Shown here: in pieces, positions 1-43,270 of the stretch
How the letters are laid out: each line of letters begins with the position of its first letter
Position numbering within the stretch: position 1 is the stretch's first letter
IMG/VR virus record: IMGVR_UViG_3300003973_000003
Coordinates: 1 to 45,338 of that record
Length of the DNA: 45,338 nt
Source: a virus
Direction: 5' to 3' (one strand)
Translations under genes and position numbers: made by a program
The notes under the pieces: model-generated
Databases searched by the model: none
What the model was told of the DNA's origin: nothing
The model's input: only the letters and a program-made list of their open reading frames with translations

Positions 1-1
1 C

Positions 2-619
<618 letters not shown>

Positions 620-640
620 TAGTTTGATCGCGGTTTAATT

Positions 641-666
641 AATGGGGCTTCGGCCCCATTTTCGTT
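641..666 (+). terminator. Rho-independent terminator or attenuator after the SSB-like gene
   Basis: aatggggc-ttcg-gccccatt stem with a UUCG loop, followed by a ttttcgtt tract. Confidence 0.65.
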
Positions 667-676
667 AGGGTGAATA

Positions 677-1546: not shown

Positions 1547-1549
1547 AAC

Positions 1550-3205
1550 ATGGATTTACGCTGGTATCAGAACGGGGCTGTCGATTCGTTCTTTAACTTC
1601 CTCTGTACGAAAGAAGACCCTAGGGAAAACCCGCTTGCGGCACTCCCGACGGGTACGGGTAAGTCTCCTGTTCAGGCCGGTTTCATCAAAAGGGTTATCG
1701 AAGAATGGTCTAACCAGCGTTTCATGTGCCTGACTCACGTAAAAGAGTTAGTTGACCAAAACTCCCGAACCCTACGTCGGATGATGCCTAACGCACCTAT
1801 CGGCATTCATTCGGCAGGTTTGAAACAAAAGGATTTCGCGCAGCCTATTATATTCGGAGGTGCTGGATCGGTCGTTAAAAACATAGACATGTTCGGGCGT
1901 CGTGATATCTGCTTCGTTGACGAATGCCACATGATAGGCGGGGCGGATACCAAGACCTACGCCGCCATCATTGCAGGACTTCGCCGCAACAATCCTAAAA
2001 TTAGGTTCCTGGGGTTGACCGCTACGCCGTACCGTATGAAACAGGGTATGATTACCGACGGGGGCGACCCGTTCACCGAAATATGCTACGACATGACTAG
2101 CATGGAATCATTCAACCGTTTGTTGAATGAGGGTTTCATAGCCCCGTTGGTCGCACAACCAACGTCAGTAACTTACGACGTAAGTAGTGTTAGCGTGAGT
2201 GGCGGTGAGTTCAATAAAAGCGCATTGCAATCGCAGGTCGATAACGACATGCTTAATAGGGCGTGCGTCGAAGAAATGGTTGAACGGGCGCATAATCGCC
2301 ACTGCTGGCTAGTGTTTGCATCCGGTATCGACCATGCCGAACATATCGCCGAAATGCTGCAAGAGTACGGAATCAACGCGATGGCCGTACATTCAAAGCT
2401 TGACAGCGGCGAACGTGACAGACGGATTGCGTTGTTCAAGACGGGTAAGATTCGATGCCTTGTCAACAACGGCGTATTGACAACAGGATTCGACCATCCA
2501 CCAGTGGATTTTATCGGTATGATGCGTCCGACGTTATCGCCCGGTCTGTGGGTTCAAATGTTAGGCCGTGGTACACGAATCTATGATTGGTGGACTGAAT
2601 CGCTTTACATACCGGGCTTCGACTACACTAAATATAACTGCCTTGTGTTAGACTTCGCTGGTAACACGCAACGCCTGGGGCCGATCAACGATCCCAAAGT
2701 TCCGCGCAAAAAGGGACTGGGCGGCGGCGACATGCCGATTCGAGTATGCGACCGCTGTAAGACATATAACCACGCTTCGGCGCGATACTGTGGCGGTAGT
2801 CCTACCCCGTCGTTCGCCGGATGCGGATTAGAGTTCACGTTCGAAAGTAAACTGGAAGACACCAGCAGCACGGCCCCGTTGATTGCGAACTATGAAGCCC
2901 CGACGGTTGCATACTTTGACGTTCGAAAGGTAACGTATCAACTACACAGAAAAGACGGGTCGCCCGACTCAATGCGTGTATCGTATTACTGTGGGGAGCG
3001 AAAGCCGTTCGAAGTCTGGATTGCATTAGAAAGTACAAGAGGTAAACACGTAGCATCGCAATGGTGGAAACAGGCCGACGGGGATCGAGTCCCGCAAACA
3101 ACAGCCGAAGCGTTAGAGCGCGCTCCGTATATTAGGACGCCAAAGCGCCTTAGAGTTCAAACAAACTTAACCTATCCGAAAGTGTTGAATTATGAATACG
3201 AATAG
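1550..3205 (+). CDS. SF2 DNA helicase (DEAD/DEAH, ResIII-like) with a C-terminal zinc ribbon
   Basis: 551 aa. Motifs: LPTGTGKS (Walker A), VDECH (motif II), LTATP (III), QMLGRGTR (VI), CDRCKTYNHASARYCGG...GCG. Confidence 0.9.
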   Translation: MDLRWYQNGAVDSFFNFLCTKEDPRENPLAALPTGTGKSPVQAGFIKRVIEEWSNQRFMCLTHVKELVDQNSRTLRRMMPNAPIGIHSAGLKQKDFAQPIIFGGAGSVVKNIDMFGRRDICFVDECHMIGGADTKTYAAIIAGLRRNNPKIRFLGLTATPYRMKQGMITDGGDPFTEICYDMTSMESFNRLLNEGFIAPLVAQPTSVTYDVSSVSVSGGEFNKSALQSQVDNDMLNRACVEEMVERAHNRHCWLVFASGIDHAEHIAEMLQEYGINAMAVHSKLDSGERDRRIALFKTGKIRCLVNNGVLTTGFDHPPVDFIGMMRPTLSPGLWVQMLGRGTRIYDWWTESLYIPGFDYTKYNCLVLDFAGNTQRLGPINDPKVPRKKGLGGGDMPIRVCDRCKTYNHASARYCGGSPTPSFAGCGLEFTFESKLEDTSSTAPLIANYEAPTVAYFDVRKVTYQLHRKDGSPDSMRVSYYCGERKPFEVWIALESTRGKHVASQWWKQADGDRVPQTTAEALERAPYIRTPKRLRVQTNLTYPKVLNYEYE

Positions 3206-3440
3206 TCTTGTCCAACTTGGGGTTTCCAAAGAAAGGGCGGAATTGATGGTTTCCGTTCAAATGTCGTTTCAGCGCGACTTAATGCGGCGCGGTAATTGGC
3301 AGTCGTGTTTGAACTGTCTGAACTTCGCTCCAGGCAACGGTAAGAGTGTGGGGCCGAAATGTGAGGTTGCCGGGGTACTCCCGCCACCTGACGTAATCGT
3401 GTTCGGTTGCGAGAAACACGAAGACGACATTCCATTTTAG
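3192..3440 (+). CDS. Small zinc-ribbon protein ending in EDDIPF (SSB C-terminal-tip-like)
   Basis: 82 aa. CLNC...KCEV...GCEKH gives four Cys. The C-terminus ...KHEDDIPF resembles the proteobacterial SSB tip DDDIPF. The ORF overlaps the helicase stop by 14 nt. Confidence 0.6.
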   Translation: MNTNSLVQLGVSKERAELMVSVQMSFQRDLMRRGNWQSCLNCLNFAPGNGKSVGPKCEVAGVLPPPDVIVFGCEKHEDDIPF

Positions 3441-3448
3441 AGGTAATT

Positions 3449-4468
3449 ATGGCTACTAAAAATGTAGGGCGTTCACGTGCTGTATCTAAAAAGAACGCAA
3501 TTGCCGCGCCGGGTTTGGTTGCGGCCTTGGCGTTTGTAAGTGTTGCACAACGCGCAAAGGGTCTAACGTTTCAAACTCACGTACGCATGCAACGGGGTCA
3601 ACTTTTGGCGTGTGACGGGCTTGTTACGGCTGGCCACCCAATCGAGGAAAATTTAGATGCATGCCCACAATCGGCCGTGTTCGCGGTCGCACTTAGCAAG
3701 TGTGTTGACACGTTGACGCTTACGGTCGGCGACGATTCGAAAGTCCACGTTGCATCCGGCAAATTCAAGGCTAAGATTCCTTGCGCTAACCAGGAAGAAA
3801 TGCAAGAGTGTCGTCCAGACCCTAACGTTCACGCTATAGGTGAGGGTTTCCGCGAATCCCTGGCCGCTGCCGCAATGCTGGCATCCGAAGGGGCAACGGA
3901 CTTAGTTTGCGGAAGCGTACTTGTGACGGCAAATACTGTAATCGGGACGAATCGTTTCACCATGATCGAGCATTGGCATGGTATGCGTCTTCCCGATTGT
4001 GGAATGGTAGTGCCGAAAGCCAGTTGCGTAGCTCTTGGTAAAATCGTCGGAACGCTGGTAGGGTTCGGTTATAACCACGAAGCGAAAACATGTACGTTCT
4101 GGTTTGAAAACGGTTCGTGGCTCAAAACTCAATTGATGGAAAACAAGTGGCCGAACACTACGAAAATGCTTGAGTCGGCGCATGAAGCATGGCCAGTCCC
4201 TGACGACCTGTTCGAAGGTGTTCGCTCAATCATGGCCATAGGCGACGATGACATTATCCGTTTCGAACCAAGTATGATAAGATGCGGGGGCGCTAGTAGC
4301 GAAGGGACGTATGAAGTTGAAACCGGAATCGACGGCCGCGCTTTGAACGGGAAATATCTTATCGCCCTGGCCAAGTACATCGAAACGTTCGACTATATGT
4401 CAGACCACTTAAAAGCGACATTCCGTGGCGCGAATTGCCGGGGGCTGATCGCAGCATACAAGGCGTAA
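3449..4468 (+). CDS. Putative sliding clamp (DnaN beta-like)
   Basis: 339 aa from ATG 3449, with SD agagg 8 nt upstream. Patterns such as VASGKFKAKIPCANQEEM and MVVPKASCVALGKIV resemble DnaN. The gene sits between the helicase and the polymerase. Confidence 0.55.
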   Translation: MATKNVGRSRAVSKKNAIAAPGLVAALAFVSVAQRAKGLTFQTHVRMQRGQLLACDGLVTAGHPIEENLDACPQSAVFAVALSKCVDTLTLTVGDDSKVHVASGKFKAKIPCANQEEMQECRPDPNVHAIGEGFRESLAAAAMLASEGATDLVCGSVLVTANTVIGTNRFTMIEHWHGMRLPDCGMVVPKASCVALGKIVGTLVGFGYNHEAKTCTFWFENGSWLKTQLMENKWPNTTKMLESAHEAWPVPDDLFEGVRSIMAIGDDDIIRFEPSMIRCGGASSEGTYEVETGIDGRALNGKYLIALAKYIETFDYMSDHLKATFRGANCRGLIAAYKA

Positions 4469-4469
4469 C

Positions 4470-6596
4470 ATGTTCTTTACAGACGAACAATTAGCCCGCA
4501 ACCCACGGGCTAAACAGAAACTAGCGAAAGCAGATTTCGTACCTAAGAAGCTGAAATATTTTGATACGGTTGAAATACCGTATCAAGAGTTCAGCGATAT
4601 GACACTGCTTTCGGTTCGCGGTTGTACTCTTATCTACGATATCGAGTGCTACCCTAACTATTTCCTAGCCGCGTTCAAGTGTCCGAAAACCCGATTGGTA
4701 GTCACGTTCGAGCGTTCGCCCGATGCCGACTTTGATCGGGACAAACTCGTATGGGTACTTAACAACTTTGAGTTGGTAGGTTTCAATACCCGTAAGTACG
4801 ATGAATTAATGGCGTGGCTTGCTGTTTGGGGTTCGACCAATGAACAGCTAAAGTACGCATCCGATACCCTTATTACCGTTGACGGAATGTCAGGCCCGAA
4901 GCTGGCTAAGGAAATGGGGGTAAAGATTCCGAAGACGAATCAAATCGATTTGATCGAGGTCGCCCCTCTTCGCGCCTCACTCAAGACGTATGCGGGCCGT
5001 ATGCACGCGCCGCGTATGCAAGACTTGCCGTACGATCCGGCGTTCCCGTTAAGTCGCGCCCAGGCCCGCGTAGTGCGTTTCTACTGTATCAATGACCTAG
5101 ACAATACCATTCTGCTGTGGAAAGACCTGTTACCGCATCTTAGATTGCGCGTCCAGCTTTCCGAAGAGTACGGCCAGGATTTGCGGTCACGTTCCGATGC
5201 GCAGATTGCCGAACACGTATTGACGGCCGAATGCGAAAAGATTAACGGCTACTTTGCGAAGCGTCCGATTATCAAGCCGGGTACGTGTTACAAGTATCAA
5301 CCTCCCCCGTTTATTCAGTTCGCAACACCGGAATTGCAAGCGATTTTCCGAAACATATGTGAAGCCGATTTCGTCATATCCGAAAAGGGTCAACCGAAAT
5401 GTTCGTACCTCAAGGGTTTGAAAGTACGTATCGGCGCAAGCGTGTACAAAATGGGCGTGGGCGGTCTGCATAGTAGTGAAAAGGCTACGGTACACTACGC
5501 CCGCGACGGATGGTTGTTAATTGATCGTGACGTAGCCAGTTACTATCCAGCTATCATTTTGAACAACGGTTTCTTCCCTAAGCATCTTAAAGAAACGTTC
5601 CTGCAAGTGTACCGCAGTATTGTAGATCGTCGCTTGCGTGCTAAAGGATTAATGAAGTCGTCCGACTTGTCGGTAGCCGAAACGAACGCGATCATTTCTG
5701 AGTCGCTAAAGATTACGATTAACGGGTCATTCGGAAAGCTTGGTTCGAAATGGTCGGCTCTGTATTCTCCCGACTTGTTAATTCAGGTAACTTTGACCGG
5801 CCAGCTTGCCTTGCTTATGTTAATCGAAGCCCTGCATAATGTGGGCATCAATACTGTATCGGCCAACACTGACGGTATTGTGATTAAGGTTCACGAAAGC
5901 GCGTACGACGAACTTAATCGCATCGTAGGTCTTTGGGAAAAACATACCAAGTTCGAAACCGAAGAAACGCAATATTCAGCAGTATTTAGCCGTGACGTTA
6001 ACAACTATATGGCTATTAAAAAGTACTACGATAAGAAGGTGAAACAATGGACGACAACATATCCCGAATTGAACCATAAAGGGGTGCCGTTCAAAACGTC
6101 CGATAAGGTTAAAGGTAAGGGGGTATTCGGCGAAACGACATTGAAGAAACAACCCACCAATGAGATATGCGCAAAGGCGGTTGCCGAATTTCTGCTTAAC
6201 GGGACGAGCATTGCCCACACTATCCAGGCATGCAAGGCTTTGTCCGATTTCATCACCGTTAAGAGCGTCAAAGGCGGGGCCGAAAAAGACGGGTGGTATC
6301 TAGGTAAGGCGATCCGATGGTATTACGGTCGCGGTATGCGGGGTACTATTAATTACGTTAAGAACGGCAATACGGTAGGTAATTCGGAAGGTGCGACACC
6401 GTGTATGGATTTACCGGAAGTATTCCCAAGTGACGTTGATTACGATTGGTACATCAATAACGCCGAAGGTATGCTAAAGTCGATGGGGTATTATGGTGTA
6501 GCCAAAGAAGCCACCGCGTTCGATCTGTTTACAAGTGCTAATGTGGAAGACGAACACGAAGAGGAAGACGAAGAGGAAGAATCTTTAGAGTGGTAA
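4470..6596 (+). CDS. DNA polymerase, family-B-like, with a 3'-5' exonuclease domain and an acidic C-terminal tail
   Basis: 708 aa. Exo motifs: YDIECYPNYF, FNTRKYDELM, YCINDLD. Polymerase motifs: DVASYYPAII (DxxSLYPS-like), KITINGSFGKLG, SANTDGIVI (DTD-like). The C-terminus reads AFDLFTSANVEDEHEEEDEEEESLEW. Confidence 0.9.
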   Translation: MFFTDEQLARNPRAKQKLAKADFVPKKLKYFDTVEIPYQEFSDMTLLSVRGCTLIYDIECYPNYFLAAFKCPKTRLVVTFERSPDADFDRDKLVWVLNNFELVGFNTRKYDELMAWLAVWGSTNEQLKYASDTLITVDGMSGPKLAKEMGVKIPKTNQIDLIEVAPLRASLKTYAGRMHAPRMQDLPYDPAFPLSRAQARVVRFYCINDLDNTILLWKDLLPHLRLRVQLSEEYGQDLRSRSDAQIAEHVLTAECEKINGYFAKRPIIKPGTCYKYQPPPFIQFATPELQAIFRNICEADFVISEKGQPKCSYLKGLKVRIGASVYKMGVGGLHSSEKATVHYARDGWLLIDRDVASYYPAIILNNGFFPKHLKETFLQVYRSIVDRRLRAKGLMKSSDLSVAETNAIISESLKITINGSFGKLGSKWSALYSPDLLIQVTLTGQLALLMLIEALHNVGINTVSANTDGIVIKVHESAYDELNRIVGLWEKHTKFETEETQYSAVFSRDVNNYMAIKKYYDKKVKQWTTTYPELNHKGVPFKTSDKVKGKGVFGETTLKKQPTNEICAKAVAEFLLNGTSIAHTIQACKALSDFITVKSVKGGAEKDGWYLGKAIRWYYGRGMRGTINYVKNGNTVGNSEGATPCMDLPEVFPSDVDYDWYINNAEGMLKSMGYYGVAKEATAFDLFTSANVEDEHEEEDEEEESLEW

Positions 6597-9836: not shown

Positions 9837-12800
9837 TTAGAAAATACCCATGCGTACCCGCATTACGCCGTTGCCGTCGAATACCGTGATAAGCCGGTCT
9901 GTTATTGTCAGATACCCGTCGCCGTTGTTTGCGCCGGTCATCGTCATTGTACCCGCTTTATCGAGCTTCCATCGCGGTTGATTGTTGGCCCCTAGTGCTG
10001 ACGCCTCAATAGTGTTACCGATTTTGGCGTTCACGATTGAACCGTCCTGTATGATTGCCGAATTCATGAACACTTGGCCACCTTGAACAATGAACGGGAA
10101 TCGACTACTGTTCGGGGTGTTCGGGTCAATGATCGCAACACGGGACGCCGCCAACAGTATTTGAGATTCAATCGTAGTGCCGCTAGTGTTTTCTACACCA
10201 ACACCGATACCGGCCAAGTAATGCCGACCGTCAACAGTTAGTTGCGTTTTAATGGTGTACATTGCTGCGAGTTCGCTTACCAACGCTTCGACTTCGGCAC
10301 TAGCCCCGCCGCCGCTATTGATCTTTTCAACAAGTTCGTGGAACAGTTGCGTTTCTTTAATTTTGCCGGTAAGCGTGTCGAGAATCTTAGCTGCATCTGC
10401 GCTTGCTGTTCCAGCTATGGCAAGACCGTTGTTAAAATACGGGCCAGGACGTCCGGCCTTATCGATTACACGCGCCCAATAGTAGACAACCTCACTTGCC
10501 GACCTGTTCGTATGAACGTAATTGTCGGCAGGATACGGCAATTGAACGAGGCGTAACGCGTTGGTCAGGCTATTTGACGCTGACGCATAGATTTCGATGT
10601 TTTCGGCCATCGTCTGCGCACCGTCGGCGTACGTCCAGCGCAACCCGATTGCGAACAGTTCGGACGACGGGACGAAGGTTGCGAGGCGACATGTGGGCAA
10701 CGTCGTAGCCCTGATTTCGCCATGCCATGTCGCCCACGGCCCAGGTGTTCGCCCTACGCCCCGAACCCGCACCGACCACATACCGGGCGACATGTTCGAA
10801 GTGAGCGACGGTTCGCCGTTTGTACCAAGTGCGGCCCATCCGTCCGAACCATCAAGGCGGATTTCAAAATCGTAATAGATCGCCCCGATAGCGGGACTGG
10901 CTACAATATTCTGTACACCCATTTCGAATGTATCGAACACTTGAACAGTCGCAACGATTGGGGCGGTCGGGATCGTCGGCAAGTTCGATTCAGGCCCAGG
11001 CGGCGGCACGTTACCGCCGTATTCCGCACTGTGTACACTGTCTGCGTAATTGATACATGTAATGTTCACCATTCCGTCACTGGTAGGCGTCGCTGACGTA
11101 ATAAGAGCAAGGATACCTTGTCGGTCAGTAGGGCCGCATTGATATGTCGTGTAATCTTCCCGAATACCGTCGGATATGGAGATAGTTGCAAGTACTGCCG
11201 CCGATTCGTCAATCCGTGCGCCCCATTCGTTTTTGTCCGAACTTAACGACGTCGCCGCCACCATTCGGAACGGCCCTAACGAGCTACCGTTCTTTTTACG
11301 GAACGCTATTACATGCGACTGGCCGTCAGTGAACGGGATAGGTTCAGTAGTTCTAAGCACCCCTGTTGTTTTATCAAGAGACAACACGCGACCGAAGTAC
11401 CCCCATTGCGGTACGTCGTGTGAAATACGGGTGAGGCTGTTATAGTACGGAACCAAACCGGCGCTATGTGTTTGGAACGAAATGTTACGGCGACGGTCGC
11501 GGTTAGCAGCGGCCATGCTGATACCTTCGCGCCATGCTTGCTTGCGGTCGGTACAGCCTTGTAACGTGACGTTGTACGGCTTTAGTTCTGTCGAACCGGG
11601 TAAGACACATTTGATTGTTGCAGGTTCCCATGTTTCACCGTCGATGTATTCCATTACGATATGGTCGGGGGTATCCATGTCGTCAAAGTTATACACAGCA
11701 CGGAACGAGTCTGCAATCATGTTCGAAGGCTGGAACATCGATTCGGGAATAGTCTTGGCTTCGTCACGAACGAAGTCGATAACACCGGCGTAATAAATCG
11801 GAGTTGCGCGACCTACTCGGAGAATTCTAGTGAGTGCGTCCCAGAATTGAATCGTTGTATCAAACACCCCGTTAAAGCCGTCATCACGAGTTGCCCACAC
11901 TTGAGCCAGGGTCGCCAGGGCTTGAATATTGAAACGGTCGGTTGTCAAACCACGGCCGTATACTGGGTTACGGATAGCGTCCGCCGCGATCCACGCGGGG
12001 TTGTCAGATTCGATCAAGCCCGACCATCCGTTCACGGCGTCCCATTTCTGAACTAACCCGGTTGACACGACAGAGAATTTACGCGCTGTTGTGGAATTCA
12101 GAACGTTCGTTGCTTTCATCATTACAGCTATCATCGTTACGTTCGGATACGTAACGTTGCTTGTGACGTACCCGCGCATCGCAAGCCATTGCGTCATTTC
12201 AACGGTGGTATCGTTAGCCGCTTCGGGCGAAACACGACGACCCTGTACCCGGTAACGGGCTTCGGGTACGCTGACTTTGTAAGACTTGTATTGCGGCGTC
12301 GGCGTCGCCATGCTGACGGTATCGCGCAACAGGGTTTTCCACGCGCCGATAGGGCTACCCAGTACGTCGATTTCTTGGTATTCGAATTCGAACGTAACCG
12401 AGTGCGTTTTAGTATTCCCGTTCTTTTCGTCAATGGTGCGCAACCCTTGCGGGAAACAAATATCAAGGCCGATAAAGTTCGTCGTGGAACCTGCGGCCGA
12501 TACGTTGAACGGGCCTAGTGTAGTGAATGACGGACTATTCGGGCCGTACATGGTCAAGTTCTGAACACCCGATGACGTTATCACGTTATCGGGGAATAAC
12601 GTAACTTTGCCACCCGGACGAATGATTTCTGTCTTAGCTTCCGCGAAATCGGCAATGTTTGTTCCATCAACGTAAATGTTCTTTACTGTTGCTTCGCCTA
12701 GAGTAAGCGCGAACAACTGGTACAGGTACTGTTCGTTACCTTGATATTCGGTGTACGGTTGACTAGCCAAGTCGGGGAACGTACGCATTGTTCCATAAAC

Positions 12801-21811: not shown

Positions 21812-22270
21812 CTACTCCTTATTTGTTTCGTCGTATTGGAATTCGGTTACGACATTCAACCGATAAAACATGTCTTCTTGCGGCAATTCATTTATTCGGC
21901 TGTTGCGATATACTATCGCGCATTCCGATTGCCAATTTCTGAATTCGGCCTGTATTGCTTGCGCAATTGCTTCGCCACTTTCGATTATTTCGTCGTCGCC
22001 TTTAGGCATGAATATCTGAACGACCAATAACCCGCTGACAGTATAACGCCTTTGACCCGGTTTGCCCACATTAGTACTAAGGGTTGTTTGTTCCGTGTCG
22101 GCCGTGTGAATGGTGGCGCGCAGCCAAAGAATGTTTGACGGCTTATAGGGTTCCATCAAGCCCTGATAATAGAGCGCCGGTACAACGGGGCGTCGGGCAG
22201 GGTTCGAATCGTTAACCTTAGTAATTCGCCCGTACATTTCGTCCCGCGCTTCGTTACGTGTAGCACTCAT
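21812..22270 (-). CDS. Tail terminator (DUF4128 / gpU-like)
   Basis: 152 aa. The pattern ILWLRATIHTADTEQTTLS...RRYTVSGLLVVQIFMPKGDD is typical of the family. It lies immediately upstream of the major tail gene. Confidence 0.65.
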   Translation of the reverse strand: MSATRNEARDEMYGRITKVNDSNPARRPVVPALYYQGLMEPYKPSNILWLRATIHTADTEQTTLSTNVGKPGQRRYTVSGLLVVQIFMPKGDDEIIESGEAIAQAIQAEFRNWQSECAIVYRNSRINELPQEDMFYRLNVVTEFQYDETNKE

Positions 22271-22653
22271 TCTACAAGTTCCATTTCATAGAGTAACGCC
22301 CCTTCGTCATTCGGTTCAATCGGATCAATACTGACTATCCGAAACGCCGAACCGTTCTTTCGAGTAATAACGTCTTTGAGCGATGGTTTAAACGGGACTG
22401 GCGGCATATACGCCAACGTCGTTCCGGTTTCAACGTCCGAGTTTTTCATCAATCGCGCCATCCGGCGAACCGAACCGCCTATAGGGATGAATGCAATTTT
22501 CGGCGTGTACGTTGTCGCACTCGTCCCGCCAGGAAGCCAGGGCTTGCTAGGGTCTTTGGGTACGGTTGCGCCAACACTGAGATACGACACTGTTTCGCCG
22601 TATTTCGCAATGAGGCGCAGCGCTGACGCTTTCTGTCTGTCGTAGACTCCCAT
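22267..22653 (-). CDS. Head-tail joining / head closure protein
   Basis: 128 aa from the internal ATG 22653, 1 nt after the upstream stop. Assigned by synteny between the adaptor and the tail terminator. Confidence 0.55.
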   Translation of the reverse strand: MGVYDRQKASALRLIAKYGETVSYLSVGATVPKDPSKPWLPGGTSATTYTPKIAFIPIGGSVRRMARLMKNSDVETGTTLAYMPPVPFKPSLKDVITRKNGSAFRIVSIDPIEPNDEGALLYEMELVE

Positions 22654-22654
22654 A

Positions 22655-23173
22655 CTAAGCCCGTACCGTACGGATACCAGCGCCCGCGCAGGGACACACA
22701 TCGAACAACAATGCAAGCGCCAAATTCACGGCGCTGATAACAGGCGGCGAATACGTCACCCAGTTACCGACGGCGTATTCGGTATCAATCGGGCCAATCT
22801 TTTCGCGCTTGATATCCGGCCCCGACTTACTCGGAAACAAAGCCCCGCCGTCTGCAACGAACAACGCCGCGTGCATTTGCGCAGCTTTGAGCTTCGGCGG
22901 TATCTTGTCAGTCGGATACGGCTTGTCGAAATACACGACGCCCGTACGTGGCCAACAGAACGATTGTGTTTCGGGGCTAGTACGGCGACCAGGAAACTTA
23001 CATTCGAACGTGTCGAGGAACATGGCCGACATGGTTAACATCGGAATCAAAGCGTCGTCACTTGTGGGCAAGACAGACCCGTACAACGCCGCAAACGCAC
23101 GAAGTTCGGCAACGCTAACATAACTGTTAGCGTTCGGAACGCCGCTACCGTCTTCGATGATGATAGCGGCCAT
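22655..23173 (-). CDS. Head-tail adaptor (gp6-like / DnaT-like connector)
   Basis: 172 aa. MAAIIIEDGSGVPNANSYVSVAELRAFAALYG... is the typical N-terminus of this connector family. Confidence 0.65.
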   Translation of the reverse strand: MAAIIIEDGSGVPNANSYVSVAELRAFAALYGSVLPTSDDALIPMLTMSAMFLDTFECKFPGRRTSPETQSFCWPRTGVVYFDKPYPTDKIPPKLKAAQMHAALFVADGGALFPSKSGPDIKREKIGPIDTEYAVGNWVTYSPPVISAVNLALALLFDVCPCAGAGIRTVRA

Positions 23174-28534: not shown

Positions 28535-30130
28535 CTATGTTGGTTTTACAAGTTTGATCTTAGTTGCCCTGCGGTTGTTACCAGCCAACACACGGTAACG
28601 GGTTTCGTCATAAATGTGGTCTTCGGCTGTTTGGTCTACATTTTCCATGTCTTTCGGGTCGCGTGTCAAGTTAGGTAGGATAGCGATAGAAGCCCTACAG
28701 CAGTCCATCCAGTAAATCCCCGGCCCTTCGCCTTCTACAGATGCCGTCATGCGTTCGCGTATCAGTTCCAGGCCAATAGCGCGGCTTCCAGATGACTTGT
28801 CACTTTTCAGCCATTTAATACCAACGTCGGACATTCGTTTCTCTGTCGTTTCGATTTCGCTATCGTTGACGTTTCGAATCTGGTTATCCGCTGGCCCCGC
28901 GTGCGGTTGTGTACGTATCCAGCCTTTAGCCATCAAAGCAATTTCGATATCCCGAATACCTTCGGCGATACGCTTCGCTCCGTATTTCAAGCCCTTGTTC
29001 GTGCCGATTTCTTCGGTCAAATACCATTCCCATAATCGAATAAGCGTTCCTGGCGGCGGACAGAACACGGAACCGTCAGGCATAATTGCCTCTTCGCCGT
29101 TCGCTTCCGCCCACCAGCCGACCGATGCGGGGGCCGTCGAACCCCAGTCGAACGAACGGTCGATACGCCACCCTTCGGGGATAACGAACCTCTTAACAAC
29201 GTGTACTTGCGGGAACCACACATCATCGAACGCACCACCGGCAACAATGTTCCAATCACCCATAAGCCATGCCTTACGACGGTTTTCGTCCTTTTCGGCG
29301 TTAAGTTCGGCGACGTATTTCGGCGAAAGGTAAATGTTTTCAACGTACGATCCGAAGATTGCGACTTGCGTAATGTCGATTTGAACGTCCTCTTGTGTTC
29401 CAGGGTCGAACACAACTTGACTCTTTCGGACTACCGTACCGTAAGGGGCTGGATCGATAAATCGATTTTTAACCCATCCGTGACCTGGGCCGTACGGGTT
29501 ACATGTGCTGAATACTTCTAGCGGAATCTCACGCATCGGTTGACGTATTGCGTGTTTGTGATTTCGTTGTACGCGTACCATCTGGCCATACTGACGGTAT
29601 ATTTCGCCGTCAATAAACGGGGCGTTTTTAGCTACGGTAAACGAACTTCGGTTAGTTGACATCATCATGTCATACAGGGTACTTGTGGGGTACTTGGTTA
29701 ATTCGTTCCAGCCTAAATATGCAAACTCTTGACCGTGATAATCCCAATAGTCGGCCTCTGTTTTAACTACTCGGAATAGTAATTCTTCGCCAGTCTTCCA
29801 CACCCATTTAAGCGCGGACGTACCGGCATGGAACTTTGCACCATCACCGAACGCGTTGAACCAACGTTTCGATTTCGAAATCAAGTCATCTAAGTTTTTA
29901 TATTCACGGTCGAAGATAACGCCACGCCAGAACGGGCCGTATCCGATGCCCACATTACGGCGGTATCGCATTAGCTGCGTGTCGGTCTTACCGGGGCCGC
30001 GTGCGCCAGTGTACAACGTGTGATCGGCCCGCGACGCCAGGGCGAATTCTTGCGATGTTCCGGGGATAGGTTCCCAAACGACATTTGCGTTTTCAGGCGT
30101 CCATATCTTCTTTTCGGGTACAAAGATCAT
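28535..30130 (-). CDS. terL: Terminase large subunit
   Basis: 531 aa. Walker A TGARGPGKT, and a C-terminal nuclease-type region with conserved acidic residues. Portal lies downstream. Confidence 0.9.
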   Translation of the reverse strand: MIFVPEKKIWTPENANVVWEPIPGTSQEFALASRADHTLYTGARGPGKTDTQLMRYRRNVGIGYGPFWRGVIFDREYKNLDDLISKSKRWFNAFGDGAKFHAGTSALKWVWKTGEELLFRVVKTEADYWDYHGQEFAYLGWNELTKYPTSTLYDMMMSTNRSSFTVAKNAPFIDGEIYRQYGQMVRVQRNHKHAIRQPMREIPLEVFSTCNPYGPGHGWVKNRFIDPAPYGTVVRKSQVVFDPGTQEDVQIDITQVAIFGSYVENIYLSPKYVAELNAEKDENRRKAWLMGDWNIVAGGAFDDVWFPQVHVVKRFVIPEGWRIDRSFDWGSTAPASVGWWAEANGEEAIMPDGSVFCPPPGTLIRLWEWYLTEEIGTNKGLKYGAKRIAEGIRDIEIALMAKGWIRTQPHAGPADNQIRNVNDSEIETTEKRMSDVGIKWLKSDKSSGSRAIGLELIRERMTASVEGEGPGIYWMDCCRASIAILPNLTRDPKDMENVDQTAEDHIYDETRYRVLAGNNRRATKIKLVKPT

Positions 30131-30612
30131 GCCTTATCTTTCGGAGTCTGTTTGGCAACGTGCTTACCACTTGTCAGCCTTTCCTGTTGCTCTTTCATTT
30201 TCTGTTCCCATTCCTTATCTGATCCGTGTTCGCGGACGATCATTACCGACGGAATCACGTTGGCGTCATGTACGGCTGGCGACGGCTTGTCAATGAAGCT
30301 ACGTACTTCGGCATACAGCTTCGCGGCTTTAAGTCTGTCGTCCATACTTGCGGCCGTGTCTTCGGCCATAGTCCACACCAGACGGGCCAAGTCGGCTTTG
30401 TTCGGCAATGTTTCTTCGTTGGCTGATTCCTGACGTAACCGTTCGACTTCCGACAGAACGTATTCGTCCTTCGGGAGCGTTGCGGCCATTGCGGCCATAT
30501 CGGTAGTTGACGCGTCAGCGCCCATAGCGAATTTCGCCGCGCCGAAACGGTCAAGAGGATTTGCAAAAAGAAAAGCCGCAAAAGCGGCTTTATCGTCAAC
30601 GGTGTAAGTCAT
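30127..30612 (-). CDS. Putative terminase small subunit
   Basis: 161 aa with an ATGA overlap with terL. The call rests on position only. Confidence 0.5.
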   Translation of the reverse strand: MTYTVDDKAAFAAFLFANPLDRFGAAKFAMGADASTTDMAAMAATLPKDEYVLSEVERLRQESANEETLPNKADLARLVWTMAEDTAASMDDRLKAAKLYAEVRSFIDKPSPAVHDANVIPSVMIVREHGSDKEWEQKMKEQQERLTSGKHVAKQTPKDKA

Positions 30613-39318: not shown

Positions 39319-39540
39319 TTACCCTTTCGTAGCTTCGGTTTCGAGTTTGATAGCTTTGTTCAAGTCCGACAGTTCGATATATTGATCGGCCAGGATTACG
39401 TTAACTGCTGCCCGGATTTCTTCGGCTGTCATATCGGTGAACGTCATTACATTTTCGATGGCGGACAACGCGTTAGCACGTACGATACTGCGGCTTTGCT
39501 GGTGGCGGTATTCGCGCATCGCAATAGTTTCGTTTTTCAT
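39319..39540 (-). CDS. Hypothetical protein
   Basis: 73 aa, the first gene downstream of the promoter at 39575-39602. Confidence 0.55.
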   Translation of the reverse strand: MKNETIAMREYRHQQSRSIVRANALSAIENVMTFTDMTAEEIRAAVNVILADQYIELSDLNKAIKLETEATKG

Positions 39541-39574
39541 GATTCGCTTCCCTGAGTTGTGTTTCGATATAAGT

Positions 39575-39602
39575 ATTCTACAGTAACAACCCAGGAATGC
39601 AA
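39575..39602 (-). promoter_or_regulatory. Sigma70-like promoter TTGCAT-N16-TAGAAT
   Basis: Minus strand TTGCATtcctgggttgttactgTAGAATactt in a 70-bp intergenic gap. Confidence 0.6.
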
Positions 39603-39610
39603 GCGTTATT

Positions 39611-39991
39611 TTAATTGTCGAAAGTTTGCAACGTGGTGAATCGTTTCGCCGGTATGTGTGTTCGCCCGTCGATTAGCGCCCTGGCTATTCGGTGCCAGCC
39701 GTCCATGATATAGCCGTCGGCGTTGACGATGACGGGTTTAGTGATATCCACGCTGCCCACACGAATCGCATGATGCGCGAGACTGTACGGGGTCAGTGCG
39801 TCCAGGCCGAACGGTGTACAGCCGATATGCACACTGCGAACGTCCATGTCGTACACTTCAAGACCTTCGGCGAGTTCGATCAAGCGTTCGACTGTGACCA
39901 TGCCGTTACCGACAGGACAGTGGTAGTAGTTGTTTGCTGGCGTGATTACTTCAAACTCAATCGGCCCCATGTTACGCAGTCGCTTAGACAT
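39611..39991 (-). CDS. ParB/sulfiredoxin-like N-terminal (nuclease) domain protein
   Basis: 126 aa from ATG 39991 (the ORF-track start at 40000 is GTG). GYIMDGWHRIARALIDGRTHIPAKRF matches the DGxHR core of ParB-like domains. Confidence 0.6.
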   Translation of the reverse strand: MSKRLRNMGPIEFEVITPANNYYHCPVGNGMVTVERLIELAEGLEVYDMDVRSVHIGCTPFGLDALTPYSLAHHAIRVGSVDITKPVIVNADGYIMDGWHRIARALIDGRTHIPAKRFTTLQTFDN

Positions 39992-40244
39992 TGTTGTCAC
40001 CTTTCATCGTTAATAATTCATCAAAGTATTCGATCCGTTCCAGGGCGAAAACATCGCTACCCGTACGCATTTCGATAAGTGTTCGCGCTCCAGCGTTGTA
40101 CTCGCCTTCGAATTCTGCATCGCGCTCTAGCATTTCTACTATGCCCACGATATGCGCTACGGGGATCATCGCCCTGAGCCTGAACCCTTCCGCATTCGGG
40201 TCTTCGTTTGCATAGACCCTCATTATTCTAATGAACCCTGCCAT
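39984..40244 (-). CDS. Acidic hypothetical protein, the first gene after the non-coding region
   Basis: 86 aa with SD GAAAGGA 9 nt upstream. Confidence 0.55.
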   Translation of the reverse strand: MAGFIRIMRVYANEDPNAEGFRLRAMIPVAHIVGIVEMLERDAEFEGEYNAGARTLIEMRTGSDVFALERIEYFDELLTMKGDNNV

Positions 40245-40305
40245 GATGTTTCGTCCTTTCTAACCCTGTTGTCGAAGTATAAGAGGGTCGTCAATGGCTT
40301 TTGAG

Positions 40306-40322
40306 TAGCTAAGTGTTTGATT
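40306..40322. repeat. Left arm of the 17-bp inverted repeat (tagctaagtgtttgatt)
   Basis: The reverse complement of 40465-40481 matches at 16 of 17 positions. Confidence 0.85.
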
Positions 40323-40357
40323 TTAATAATATATATATATATATAATATATATAATA
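40320..40357. repeat. 38-bp tract of 100% A/T with (TA)n runs
   Basis: attttaataatatatatatatatataatatatataata. Confidence 0.95.
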
Positions 40358-40439
40358 CTAGATCACTTTCTATTCGGTTCTAGGAGTTCGGCGATAAGCA
40401 TCCCGCAGATCATGGACACTATCCCATTCTCCTAAAACC

Positions 40440-40455
40440 CCTTATATCCTTATAT
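40440..40455. repeat. Tandem 8-mer, two copies (ccttatat)
   Basis: Read directly from the sequence. Confidence 0.85.
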
Positions 40456-40464
40456 TCTGTTTCG

Positions 40465-40481
40465 AATCAATCACTTAGCTA
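40465..40481. repeat. Right arm of the 17-bp inverted repeat (aatcaatcacttagcta)
   Basis: Pairs with 40306-40322. The arms are 142 bp apart. Confidence 0.85.
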
Positions 40482-40501
40482 TTATATTTGCTATTATATT
40501 T
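40478..40501. repeat. Tandem 12-mer, two copies (gctattatattt)
   Basis: Read directly from the sequence. Confidence 0.9.
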
Positions 40502-40502
40502 T

Positions 40503-40520
40503 GTTATACGCGTTATACGC
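40503..40520. repeat. Tandem 9-mer, two copies (gttatacgc)
   Basis: Read directly from the sequence. It abuts the primase stop codon. Confidence 0.9.
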
Positions 40521-40521
40521 G

Positions 40522-42969
40522 CTATCCTATCCCGAAAGCACGCGGAACCGTAATCATGAAACACTTAGCCGAACTGTTAAAACGCGTATGCGCTACCTGG
40601 GGACTGAGTTCGGAAATATCGCCACGTTCGCGGAATGTCTGCAACACGCGCTTGATCGCGTTCGTTGAACCTGCGCGGTCTTTGCGAAACGAGGATATAC
40701 CCTGCAATCGCCGAGACAGATAGCTATACGGAATCACACGTTCCGAATGCATACCCATTGCGACACCGTAACGTTCAACAGTCGAATACGGGGACATGAT
40801 GTACTCTTTGACTACACGCGTTGCGTCAAGTACTTGGTTCACTTCGTCCGAATTCGCGCCAACGCTACCATTGCTGAAACGAGCAAGCATGTTCCCGCAA
40901 TCGGCCCTGACGATGTTGATTGACCAGTGCGCTATTTCTGCTGTGATAACCGGCCTGAGATAGTTGCAGCCTACCGCGATAAGTGCGCCAAGTTTCATCG
41001 CCTTCAAGTGCGCCCGGTTCCACAAGTTCTTTGTCACCTCTTTGGCCATTTCGCCGTTGATCCGGTCGTCGCACTCTTCGTTTAGCTGGTCGTACATGTG
41101 GGCAGCTTCCGCCGTCTGTTCCACCGGAATAGCATCGTTGGCTGAATTGAGCATGATTGAGTGCGAACACAAGTCGCTGACAGCTTGCAGCAGGTTTTCA
41201 TCTGGAACCATCTTTGACGCGTTCTTATTGAGGCGCGGTCGCTTGCCGTGGTATTCGATCACAGTGAAGCGAGGTAACAGACCCTCCGTAATCATACCTT
41301 CGTCAAGACCTTCATAAAAACGTTCGGGCGTCGATTCTCCGAGTAGCGAATAGTTAGGCGAATCAATCACCGTTGTGTTTTTATCCGCGTCCGCGAAAAT
41401 TGACGGTCGAACAACGTCGTCTTTGCCCGATTTGTTGAACAGGTCAAGCATGGTACGCCGCAGTGCGATCTTATGGGGCGGCGCGTTCCGGTCGGTCATT
41501 TCCTGCAAGTAAATGCCGAATTCACCAACGACCGAAACGAACGAGTTTCGCCCTTTCGACATGAACTTAATCAGCGCTTGTGCACTGGCGACCTCTGACG
41601 GCCCTACGAAATCGTAAGCTCCGTTGACGCGGGTATTCACCCTGGCTAACAGTCGTTCAATACCTGACGCCAGGGATTCTTTGCCCGTACCCGTAGGGGC
41701 CAGCAACAGCAGGTACTGGTTAAGACCCGTCGCTGATATGTTGTATGACCGCCCGCACACGCCAGCCATCAAACCAAGGGCGGCAGTTAATGCGACTTCG
41801 GGAACAGGGCGCGGCGCAGCGCGGTAAATGAATTCGGCAATATCGCCGACAAGTCCAGGCGGCTTACTGTACACGTTACCTAAGCCTGTTGTCAGCGATT
41901 CGGGCGCGTCAAAGTCGCCCCCTGTCCCGTCGTCGTGAACGACCGTTACTGTCAAGTGGGCCGGTACGTTGGCGATTGCAATCGGGGGTGTTTGCATGTT
42001 TTCAATCCTTTCTGTGTTTTCCTGGCGGTTACGGGTAGCAGCAATTGCCGCTTCCAATTGGTTACGCATACCGTCGATATCTACCGGCGGCAACATGCGG
42101 TCGAACGACTTGTCAATCATGTAGTTGATATATGACTTCCCGCGAATGCGCGTCATCTTGTTCCGTTCACCCAATGGGGAATTCTGGAACAGGCGCGTAA
42201 TCTGTTCGCGGTTTTGCGTGTAGAACGCAATGATGTTCACGAACGCTAAGTCGGCTTCGGATTGCGACGGCCAACGTCCGCTTTCTCGCCAGTCGCCGGT
42301 AAGTTGGCGAACGGTTTCGGAGTTCGAAGCGTTCCAGCACATATCTATAATTTCTTGGTCGCTTTGGCGTTGCGGGGCGTTACCGTCGTACCCGGTCTTT
42401 TGTGGGCCGCCGCCAAGCTGATTCCAAAGGATTTGAGCGTTGCGCAGTAACAGATCGCTGCCCACAATAGTCCGTCGTCCGTCGTATACGTTGCCTGTCA
42501 TGGTCATGAAACGGGCGTCGCTATACATTTCGATAGACATGCGGCGACGACCATTCGGCAGGTTAATACCTTTCGTAACGATATGCATCCCATTACCCGA
42601 CGGTGAGATTTCAGAATAGCTATCGAAACCTTCGTAGATGCGGCGCTGTGTTTCCATTACGCCGTCCGGGTCGTCATACTTGAACGAGCCGTCGGGGTTG
42701 CGTTCGTACGCGTTGTCCATATCGATAATCATGTACGGGTTGTCTTTGTTCAGAACAATGCCGATGCCGTCACAAAGGTTGTGATTGAAACAGTTAACAG
42801 CTTCGGCAAACGTTCCCCAGGTGCTAGGGTCGTTCACGTTCGCACTCTTACCCGTTTTAGGGTCAAGTGGTACTTTTGTTGCTTTAACGTCCGGGTCTTC
42901 CTGTACTTTTCGCCATATCACCCAATGCGGGTACTCTTTCATTTCGTTAGGGATATTGTCAAAATTCAT
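40522..42969 (-). CDS. Bifunctional primase-polymerase (AEP) fused to a P-loop helicase
   Basis: 815 aa. The N-terminus has HWVIWR, IIDMDNA (DxD), SPSGNGMHIV and ARFMTMTGN. The central Walker A is LLLAPTGTGKES. Confidence 0.85.
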   Translation of the reverse strand: MNFDNIPNEMKEYPHWVIWRKVQEDPDVKATKVPLDPKTGKSANVNDPSTWGTFAEAVNCFNHNLCDGIGIVLNKDNPYMIIDMDNAYERNPDGSFKYDDPDGVMETQRRIYEGFDSYSEISPSGNGMHIVTKGINLPNGRRRMSIEMYSDARFMTMTGNVYDGRRTIVGSDLLLRNAQILWNQLGGGPQKTGYDGNAPQRQSDQEIIDMCWNASNSETVRQLTGDWRESGRWPSQSEADLAFVNIIAFYTQNREQITRLFQNSPLGERNKMTRIRGKSYINYMIDKSFDRMLPPVDIDGMRNQLEAAIAATRNRQENTERIENMQTPPIAIANVPAHLTVTVVHDDGTGGDFDAPESLTTGLGNVYSKPPGLVGDIAEFIYRAAPRPVPEVALTAALGLMAGVCGRSYNISATGLNQYLLLLAPTGTGKESLASGIERLLARVNTRVNGAYDFVGPSEVASAQALIKFMSKGRNSFVSVVGEFGIYLQEMTDRNAPPHKIALRRTMLDLFNKSGKDDVVRPSIFADADKNTTVIDSPNYSLLGESTPERFYEGLDEGMITEGLLPRFTVIEYHGKRPRLNKNASKMVPDENLLQAVSDLCSHSIMLNSANDAIPVEQTAEAAHMYDQLNEECDDRINGEMAKEVTKNLWNRAHLKAMKLGALIAVGCNYLRPVITAEIAHWSINIVRADCGNMLARFSNGSVGANSDEVNQVLDATRVVKEYIMSPYSTVERYGVAMGMHSERVIPYSYLSRRLQGISSFRKDRAGSTNAIKRVLQTFRERGDISELSPQVAHTRFNSSAKCFMITVPRAFGIG

Positions 42970-43166
42970 TGCTTACCTTTAGTCAGATACATATACAAGG
43001 TTTCAACACGGCATACGCCGGGTTCGGCTGAAACACCACGGGAGAATGAATGTAGCCAATGCAACTGTATCCCAGTGTCACGGGCAATCTGTTGCAGCGT
43101 GAGCGAACGCGGCCGGTTAATCAGGGCGTCACGCGTCATGTCACGCCAGGACGTTTGTGTTTGCAT
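42966..43166 (-). CDS. Small HTH DNA-binding protein (Cro/regulator-like)
   Basis: 66 aa. LTLQQIARDTGIQLHWLHSFSRG is an HTH pattern. It is the first gene of the leftward unit and has an ATGA overlap with the primase gene. Confidence 0.65.
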   Translation of the reverse strand: MQTQTSWRDMTRDALINRPRSLTLQQIARDTGIQLHWLHSFSRGVSAEPGVCRVETLYMYLTKGKQ

Positions 43167-43199
43167 GATGGTCTTTCACTACGGAAATATGATGGCACG

Positions 43200-43227
43200 A
43201 TTATACACGTAAAATTTATTCAAACAA
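43200..43227 (-). promoter_or_regulatory. Leftward early promoter TTGTTT-N16-TATAAT
   Basis: Minus strand TTGTTTgaataaattttacgtgTATAATcg, about 27 nt upstream of the HTH gene start. Confidence 0.6.
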
Positions 43228-43238
43228 TAGTAAAATTT
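43209..43238. promoter_or_regulatory. 9-bp direct repeat gtaaaattt, two copies spaced 21 bp apart; candidate operator
   Basis: Copies at 43209-43217 and 43230-43238, inside and between the divergent promoters. Confidence 0.4.
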
Positions 43239-43241
43239 CTC

Positions 43242-43270
43242 TTGACGCGTGGCATTCGTTCCTTCATACT
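43242..43270 (+). promoter_or_regulatory. Rightward early promoter TTGACG-N17-CATACT
   Basis: TTGACGcgtggcattcgttccttCATACT, about 50 nt upstream of ATG 43324. Confidence 0.65.

Follow-up and report, generated by a model that had tools for sequence, protein, structure and literature searches.

Replication origins that lie immediately 3′ of the gene for a primase–polymerase (prim-pol)/helicase initiator have been described for the Staphylococcus aureus pathogenicity islands (SaPIs) and for the Sulfolobus plasmid pRN1. The SaPI origins, which like that of pRN1 have been mapped experimentally, sit immediately downstream of rep and contain 6–12 short iterons around an AT-rich centre, with at least two opposed iterons on each side; Rep, which loads itself, binds the origin with a C-terminal winged-helix domain and needs no ATP to melt it (PMC9371898). 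The minimal replicon of pRN1 comprises a small repressor gene (orf56), the prim-pol/helicase gene orf904 and 166 bp downstream that hold a stem–loop origin, and similar structures have been noted 3′ of the prim-pol gene in the Bordetella phages BIP-1 and BPP-1; in satellite phage P4, the alpha primase–helicase binds repeated origin sites through a C-terminal winged-helix domain (PMC4234260). Here we describe an intergenic island of 277 bp (positions 40245–40521) in the IMG/VR virus record IMGVR_UViG_3300003973_000003, a single siphophage genome of about 45 kb that was analysed over its whole length of 45,338 nucleotides (the window). Computation predicts, with good confidence, that this island is a phage replication origin of the 'self-loading initiator–helicase' type.

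Other described systems share parts of this organization. The plasmid origins of pSC101 and R6K (gamma ori) combine iterons, an A/T-rich unwinding region and bending induced by integration host factor (IHF) in one compact origin, and P4 uses two separated repeat regions, ori and crr. The NrS-1 polymerase starts at the template sequence 5′-TTTGGTTA-3′, or at GTG(A/G), and the proposed NrS-1 origin has two recognition copies on opposite strands in the middle of the genome (PMC7102993, PMC8718748). A literature search returned no origin description for the genera Septimatrevirus, Kilunavirus and Lokivirus or for the unclassified clade to which the window belongs.

The island resembles the SaPI origins (Rep1, Rep2 and PriRep5) in lying immediately after an initiator–helicase open reading frame (ORF), in carrying nine short iterons, a number within the SaPI range of 6–12, and in arranging these as two opposed sets, of six and three copies, with an AT-rich region; the primase domain of the window initiator is also homologous to PriRep5 (7OLA, E = 7e-51). 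It differs from them in that the replicon is a lytic siphophage, apparently of Proteobacteria, with another iteron sequence, in an A/T tract that lies away from the centre and has inverted iterons within it, in the presence of IHF-like inverted boxes about 160 bp apart that have no SaPI counterpart, and in a helicase module of the DUF3987 type that is not demonstrably homologous to SaPI Rep. With pRN1 the window shares a small DNA-binding repressor, a prim-pol/helicase of the archaeo-eukaryotic primase (AEP) type with what is modelled in the window as a C-terminal winged helix, a candidate origin within about 170 bp downstream, all in this order, and a large inverted repeat or stem–loop in that origin. 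However, the pRN1 stem–loop of about 100 nt has no iterons, whereas the island is dominated by iterons and the A/T tract, and the 'stem' in the window consists of two boxes that look like protein sites and show no compensatory change. P4 likewise has a gene for a multifunctional primase–helicase and repeated sites at its origin, but the alpha primase is of the Toprim type rather than AEP. pSC101 and R6K need host DnaA boxes and loading of host DnaB, whereas the island has no DnaA box and the window initiator carries its own helicase and primase. NrS-1 has a homologous prim-pol, and the two inverted boxes of the window contain GTG and TTTGATT; however, the box and the NrS-1 site are only loosely alike, and boxes that also adjoin initiators of the Toprim and D5 types speak against recognition specific to a prim-pol. 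The layout of the predicted origin follows the proven origins of related mobile elements.

The island contains opposed iterons and the least stable duplex of the genome

The island extends from the stop codon of the 815-aa prim-pol/helicase ORF to the ATG of an 86-aa ORF (Table 1). An earlier note, made from the letters of the DNA, had called it the longest non-coding stretch of the genome, directly downstream of the prim-pol/helicase gene, and our own ORF map agrees on both points: the stop codon stands at the island edge, and the only longer gap, nominally 384 bp at 22271–22654, is an artefact of greedy ORF choice.

Three tandem repeat pairs reported in that note were found where it had placed them, namely CCTTATAT twice at 40440–40455, GCTATTATATTT twice at 40478–40501 and GTTATACGC in 2.6 copies at 40503–40525. 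Their iteron-like character holds, but they are not distinct repeats: all belong to one motif family, RTATAAB, which on the minus (coding) strand reads GTATAAC, ATATAAT and ATATAAG, twice each. Nine of the 27 genomic copies of RTATAAB lie inside the island, where the genome rate predicts 0.11 (P = 6e-15), and in 2,000 dinucleotide-preserving shuffles of the island the motif occurred 1.85 times on average and seven times at most. Six copies, between 40441 and 40518, are on the minus strand and three, starting at 40277, 40341 and 40350, are on the plus strand, so that the two arms oppose each other around a centre near 40394. The iteron closest to the initiator gene (40512–40518) is only 3 nt from its stop codon (40522–40524).

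The 38 bp of 100% A/T that the note had proposed as an unwinding element are, by nearest-neighbour stability, the least stable duplex of the 45-kb genome. The 40-mer at 40320–40360 has a value of −32.2 kcal/mol, compared with a genome mean of −57.8 kcal/mol (standard deviation 4.1) and with −41.5 kcal/mol for the next-lowest 40-mer outside the island. The tract is the genome minimum at lengths of 30, 40, 60 and 100 bp, and the second minimum is the iteron arm. Because two of the three distal inverted iterons sit inside the tract, it is not strictly central. No DnaA box (TTATNCACA) was found within 40245–40521 at up to one mismatch, which suits an initiator that loads itself. Two GATC sites, listed in the note among the origin features, are present at 40361 and 40408 but do not amount to an enrichment, as the genome has 116 such sites, or about one per 391 bp.

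The layout of the module is conserved while its iterons change

Homologs of the initiator, about 49% identical, occur in Lokivirus, with Escherichia coli phage Halfdan, in Kilunavirus, with Burkholderia phage KL1, in Septimatrevirus, with Pseudomonas phage Kakheti25 among many, and in numerous metagenomic contigs; the identity is 72% in one Logan contig, L003. A protein-pattern scan of IMG/VR for the initiator gave no relatives, and nucleotide searches with the island against phage records returned nothing meaningful. At the level of layout, by contrast with alignable sequence, a conserved module is recognizable: in ten relatives, whose primases span 40–72% identity to that of the window, it recurs 0–2 kb downstream of the homologous gene, an answer to the comparison that the earlier note had called for. 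The order of parts is iterons, box 1, iterons, an unconserved spacer of about 80–100 nt, a TTA/TA tract of 30–60 nt and an inverted box 2. The module follows the initiator gene directly in L003, L004, L125, Halfdan, Sphingomonas phage Kimi and Achromobacter phage Axy19, and lies 1–2 kb downstream, past inserted small ORFs, in KL1, Kakheti25, Xanthomonas phage Suba and FtMidnight. The start-to-start distance between the boxes is 156, 167, 164, 162, 163 and 169 bp in six genomes, which indicates that the length of the spacer is constrained. Its sequence is not: in a four-genome alignment of the window with L003, L004 and L125, conservation is confined to the iterons, box 1 with the adjacent iteron, the A/T tract and box 2.

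Box 1 does not vary among these four genomes and is also present in KL1, Suba, Axy19 and FtMidnight. A copy of ATATA(A/G)GG stands at the matching offset after box 1 in L003, L004 and L125, and a TTA/TA-rich tract at the matching position in the relatives compared. The outer iterons are kept as ATATAA repeats in L003, L125 and L004 and as TATAAG/C repeats in Halfdan, KL1, Kakheti25 and Suba; GTATAA(G/C) also follows box 2 in the latter four phages and in L125, but in the orientation opposite to that in the window. While the box is constant, the iteron sequence varies with the initiator lineage. Most members have TATAA(G/C/T), Kimi has ATTTAAKGG, and Axy19 has GTGTTTTCGG in at least four direct and five inverted copies. 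In Gram-positive relatives, a gap of about 290 bp straight after the primase gene contains dyad iterons around an AT-rich centre and no box, and the gaps of Listeria phage PSA and Lactobacillus phage MLC-A (Table 1) are candidate origins by this resemblance. No box was found near the prim-pol gene in the more distant phages IMEAB3, PaMx25, JenP2, PSA and MLC-A.

These comparisons provide a concrete origin candidate for a siphophage group made up of Septimatrevirus, Kilunavirus, Lokivirus and the unclassified clade of the window, several members of which infect Pseudomonas, Burkholderia and Stenotrophomonas and belong to the sort of phage that is considered for therapy. They would extend the rule of an origin immediately 3′ of a prim-pol/helicase initiator, known from SaPIs and pRN1, to lytic phages that infect Proteobacteria and, judging by sequence, to phages of Listeria and Lactobacillus. 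The combination of changing iterons with a constant box would be a natural system for studying initiator specificity and for designing origin-based vectors and replication-interference tools.

Two further observations concern KL1. Three small ORFs displace its module by 1.1 kb (L002, 6310–7805), and its spacer contains a tandem repeat, TTAAAAGTCCTATTGA, in 2.5 copies, with an extra CACTTAGC just before the upstream terminator.

The putative initiator and a predicted course of initiation

The 815-aa ORF matches phrog_3022 ('DNA primase') with E = 2e-230. A profile built from 27 homologs and searched against PDB sequences matched the primase domain of SaPI5 PriRep5 (7OLA/7OM0) at the E value given above and the NrS-1 primase–polymerase N300 at E = 4e-40. 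In the AlphaFold (AF2) model of the protein, which has a mean predicted local distance difference test score (pLDDT) of 76.5, the N-terminus matches the NrS-1 prim-pol and the C-terminal half weakly resembles MCM/ORC/Cdc6 proteins, an AAA+ module with a C-terminal winged helix. Residues ~745–812 show a helix/strand pattern at pLDDT 85–90, which we read as winged-helix-like. The first gene of the initiator operon encodes a 66-aa protein resembling helix–turn–helix (HTH) proteins; in every member of the family a homolog stands ahead of the primase gene, with the annotation 'HTH DNA binding protein' in KL1, Kakheti25 and FtMidnight, and orf56 and orf904 of pRN1 are arranged alike. The genome also encodes a DNA polymerase, a processivity factor (clamp), a second helicase, a Cas4-like exonuclease and Sak4, whereas no other candidate initiator and no integrase was detected among the genes of the window.

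The proposal of the earlier note that the island is an origin is thus supported by the opposed iteron arms, the A/T tract, the conserved module, the lineage-specific iterons and the PriRep5-homologous initiator. From these features we infer a course of binding, melting and priming. The 815-aa initiator would bind the RTATAAB iterons, probably through its C-terminal winged-helix-like region. Because the iteron arms are opposed, with six copies at 40441–40518 and three at 40277–40356, two oligomers would assemble face to face, and these would melt the DNA between and within the arms at the A/T tract. The prim-pol domain would prime the exposed strands, after which replication would pass to the DNA polymerase, clamp and helicase that the phage encodes. 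The inverted CTAAGTSNTTGATT boxes, at their fixed distance of about 160 bp, would be sites for host IHF or a similar DNA-bending protein, which would fold the origin. With an operon promoter (TTGTTT-16-TATAAT) in the divergent gap at 43167–43248 and no terminator-like site in the island, the island is probably transcribed through, and such transcription may help the origin to open.

Several observations weigh against this reading. Some relatives have no recognizable box 1 or box 2, and the A/T tract of Axy19 is placed beyond its inverted iterons. The homology to PriRep5 is confined to profile positions 4–245, and the C-terminal half of the model matches MCM/ORC/Cdc6 proteins weakly (Foldseek E 1e-3 to 1e-2, TM score 0.2–0.3). 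The iteron core TATAA resembles a −10 hexamer, so that on the letters alone operator or promoter roles are conceivable, and the protein that binds the iterons could be the initiator or the 66-aa HTH protein. Given the recombination genes for Sak4 and the Cas4-like exonuclease, later replication may bypass the origin. Finally, the cumulative GC skew, which the earlier note had named as a check, has its minimum near 43–44 kb and not at the island; since the skew changes with the strand on which the genes lie, so that gene orientation confounds it, it is uninformative on the origin in either direction.

The inverted boxes and a possible IHF-type factor

The inverted repeat noticed earlier at 40306–40322 and 40465–40481 has the reported form, with arms of 17 nt that are complementary at 16 of 17 positions and 142 nt between them, and its arms are two copies of the box CTAAGTSNTTGATT. 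At 11 or more of 13 positions, the box occurs four times in 45 kb, and three of these copies lie in or beside the island. The third, degenerate copy has the orientation of box 1 and was not seen at the equivalent place in relatives.

IHF sites have the consensus elements WATCAANNNNTTR (PMC1874591). The reverse complement of the box, AATCAANCACTTAG, fits this consensus, and the reverse complements of box 1 (AATCAATCACTTA) and box 2 (AATCAAACACTTA) match it perfectly; the A/T-rich 5′ flank expected of an IHF site is provided at box 2 by the A/T tract that precedes it. Most likely, these boxes are where host IHF or a similar bending protein would act to fold the origin, and we lean slightly towards IHF or an IHF-like protein as the factor rather than some other one. 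However, the constraint on the box exceeds the IHF consensus: nine genomes have CTAAGT without variation in their copies of box 2, whereas it is degenerate in FtMidnight, and C1, G5 and T6 are unchanged in all nine positional copies.

To our knowledge, no Tus/Ter site, MotA box, sigma-54 or sigma-32 element or 16S 3′-end complement fits the box, and a literature search for its sequence returned only unrelated PCR primers. Among other roles considered, a prim-pol-specific site, by analogy with the NrS-1 template, was downgraded because the box also accompanies initiators of the Toprim and D5 types; a site for the 66-aa HTH protein was rejected, as no HTH homolog was found in the box-bearing IMG/VR loci; and a −35 element was rejected, as the logo and manual counts gave no conserved −10 at 16–18 nt.

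IMG/VR contains at least 120 exact matches to AGCTAAGTGNTTGATT, at the loci L005–L124, and 63% of the matches listed, after dereplication, lie where no reading frame stays open for 300 nt. When GTG was changed to GGT, with the IHF consensus retained, 99 matches were obtained, which by a rough estimate is the chance number, and 8% of them were non-coding, against 63% for the box. A control that altered the 5′ flank only retained the enrichment (38% non-coding), and the contexts were unchanged. Three contexts recurred in IMG/VR. In the first, the box lies beside lineage-specific iterons and adjoins, within about 40–300 nt, initiator genes of unrelated types. In the second, it lies between the stop codon of a gene and a terminator hairpin. 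In the third, it abuts the 3′ end of a tRNA gene, once with an integrase (L096).

Examples of the second context are the loci L034, L069, L074, L068, L020, L052, L062 and L087, in which the box stands between the apparent 3′ end of a convergent gene and an intrinsic-terminator hairpin. There it would be part of the 3′ untranslated trailer, a placement that a role in origins alone would not readily explain.

In bacterial genomes, the box lies no more than 40 nt from a tRNA 3′ end in 21 of the 120 matches listed, mostly at 4–6 nt. The tRNAs are diverse, the hosts are mostly Proteobacteria, and the nearby genes are mixed, including an integrase, a Rha-like prophage gene and ordinary chromosomal genes; in proteobacterial chromosomes, some of these boxes are followed by a terminator hairpin. 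The host distribution fits IHF, in that the tRNA-adjacent loci and the hosts of the phage family are nearly all Proteobacteria and that two Gram-positive phage relatives showed no box in the non-coding DNA around their primase gene. In four Bacteroidota loci (L414, L385, L398 and L450), a hairpin that resembles a terminator (AGCTAAGT...ACTTAGCTTTTTT) follows tRNA-Leu or other genes and has the 16-mer as one of its arms, which is probably a different and unrelated use.

An IHF-type architectural site explains the origin contexts, the att-like contexts and the host range, and leaves the constraint on GTG and on C, G and T of CTAAGT unaccounted for. The core TAAGTGNTTGATT stands beside at least three unrelated initiator types (AEP prim-pol, PriCT_2+D5_N and Toprim+AAA_25), and by these sequence matches it appears to mark a large class of phage and mobile-element origins, always next to lineage-specific iterons. 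It is conceivable, and on balance doubtful, that this core is a specific, previously undescribed cis-element and not just one of many IHF sites. If it is, it would be read by a conserved factor, or by IHF with an unrecognized extended specificity, and that factor would organize origin melting or helicase loading at the fixed geometry of about 160 bp.

Alternative explanations of the island

The earlier note had itself offered a promoter, a small RNA and a mobile-element relic as alternatives to the origin, each of which turned out to be unsupported or contradicted. The best of the competing explanations, which we nevertheless consider unlikely, is a transcriptional control region, in which the TATAA repeats would be operators of the 66-aa HTH protein or weak −10 elements and the boxes would be IHF sites shaping a promoter for the small genes downstream. 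The iteron core does resemble TATAAT, the A/T tract contains weak promoter-like matches on both strands, KL1 and L126 carry a plain terminator and a sigma-70 promoter in the gap straight after the primase gene, and KL1, Kakheti25 and Suba have a promoter-like TTGACA past the module. However, the gene-proximal iterons end in C or G where a −10 element needs T, no iteron has a −35 element at a workable distance (the spacing from box to iteron is about 10 nt), and the island of the window has no terminator and no convincing sigma-70 promoter facing the 86-aa gene. The terminator and promoter of KL1 are separate from the module, so the module is not simply that pair, and a promoter would account neither for arms that oppose each other nor for so extreme an A/T tract or a constant 160 bp between the boxes. 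Since origins are often autoregulatory sites, origin and control functions are compatible.

An IHF-dependent recombination or packaging site, att-like or cos/pac-like, is very unlikely. It would agree with the fit of the box to the IHF consensus and with the bacterial boxes 4–6 nt past tRNA 3′ ends, which are sometimes near integrase or prophage genes, as in L096 too; this distance is presumably that of the core-proximal IHF site in phage att sites, such as lambda H′. Against it stand the lack of a detectable integrase in the window, the terminase genes at 28535–30612, which are 10 kb from the island, and the unrelated phage contigs in which the box adjoins primase/helicase genes and lineage-specific iterons.

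Still less probable is a structured non-coding RNA in which the inverted repeat forms a long-range stem. The island does fold better than shuffled sequences (z = −4.3 for the minus strand and −4.6 for the plus strand), but neither strand folds better than the other, which is what an inverted repeat acting at the level of DNA would give. No Rfam match was found at E ≤ 1 within 39500–41200, the interior of the 'stem–loop' is not conserved, and compensatory changes are absent: the arms differ systematically at position 7 in relatives, where box 1 keeps GTG and box 2, read on its own strand, mostly has GTC, leaving a mismatch in L003, L004, L125 and Suba. Least probable of all is that a miniature inverted-repeat mobile element once inserted after the primase gene and left the island as its relic. 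The terminal 17-bp repeats that bracket 142 bp would agree with one, but there is one copy per genome, its syntenic position and internal order are conserved across genera with the flanking protein only 40–50% identical, the iterons reach outside the inverted repeat, and no target-site duplication was apparent on reading the flanks.

Feature coordinates and other observations on the genome

The features of the predicted origin and the loci compared with it are collected in Table 1.

Table 1. Features of the predicted origin, its neighbouring genes and compared loci (the window is the 45,338-nt record).
Feature	Record	Coordinates	Strand	Remarks
First downstream gene, 86 aa	Window	39984..40244	−	No family match
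Distal inverted iteron beyond box 2	Window	40277..40283	+	GTATAAG
Box 2	Window	40309..40322	+	CTAAGTGTTTGATT, inverted copy of box 1
Putative DNA unwinding element	Window	40320..40357	.	Pure A/T, genome-wide stability minimum
Inverted iterons inside A/T tract	Window	40341..40347, 40350..40356	+	ATATAAT, two copies
Mixed-composition spacer	Window	40358..40440	.	11-bp inverted repeat and two GATC sites
Inner iterons, gene-proximal arm	Window	40441..40455	−	ATATAAG, two copies
Box 1	Window	40465..40478	−	CTAAGTGATTGATT
Outer iterons, gene-proximal arm	Window	40481..40518	−	GTATAAC at 40512–40518 and 40503–40509; ATATAAT at 40493–40499 and 40481–40487
Primase–polymerase/helicase, putative origin-binding self-loading initiator, 815 aa	Window	40522..42969	−	Pfam NrS1-1_pol-like_HBD + DUF3987
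Third box, degenerate	Window	40555..40568	−	CTAAGTGTTTCATG, 11/13; within last 50 nt of initiator coding sequence
HTH-like protein, 66 aa, first gene of initiator operon	Window	42966..43166	−	Weak match to phrog_6223 'transcriptional repressor'
Gap after primase gene, Listeria phage PSA	L133	8271..8559		AAGGTGGAGGGTTTG and CAACTATCCACC
Gap after primase gene, Lactobacillus phage MLC-A	L134	8298..8593		TGTGACGGATG in three copies, AT-rich centre, CATCCGTCACA in five copies
Box by AEP prim-pol gene	L033 (IMG/VR)	10146..10161		
Box by AEP prim-pol gene	L111 (IMG/VR)	3304..3319		
Box by AEP prim-pol gene	L005 (IMG/VR)			
Box by PriCT_2+D5_N+DUF5906 gene	L023 (IMG/VR)	5594..5609		
Box by Toprim_3+AAA_25 gene	L028 (IMG/VR)	10952..10967		
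Box by DUF3987 gene	L107 (IMG/VR)			
tRNA-adjacent box loci	L373, L391, L396, L400, L408, L421, L429, L430, L437, L442, L448, L457, L463, L471, L473			

The genes of the phage form three strand blocks, on the plus strand at 1–6596, on the minus strand at 6628–43166 and on the plus strand from 43249 to the end. The 86-aa gene downstream of the island is probably read through from the upstream operon. In the spacer, an 11-bp inverted repeat at 40376–40386 and 40429–40439 (GGTTCTAGGAG and CTCCTAAAACC) is not kept in L003, L004 or L125. Across the whole genome, GATC is under-represented, with the 116 sites comparing with 163 ± 11 in dinucleotide-preserving shuffles, and this scarcity suggests avoidance of a GATC-specific restriction or methylation system of the host.

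Two coding regions far from the island also drew attention. The first ORF (8–619, plus strand) contains in-frame short tandem repeats within 209–589, consisting of (CAG)n, CAACAG, GGCAACAAC and a 21-nt unit, which imply a low-complexity protein segment rich in Gln, Asn and Gly. In the tail-gene region, the minus-strand ORFs 22267–22716 and 22655–23173 share about 60 nt and could be a programmed-frameshift chaperone pair or the result of a mis-set start codon.

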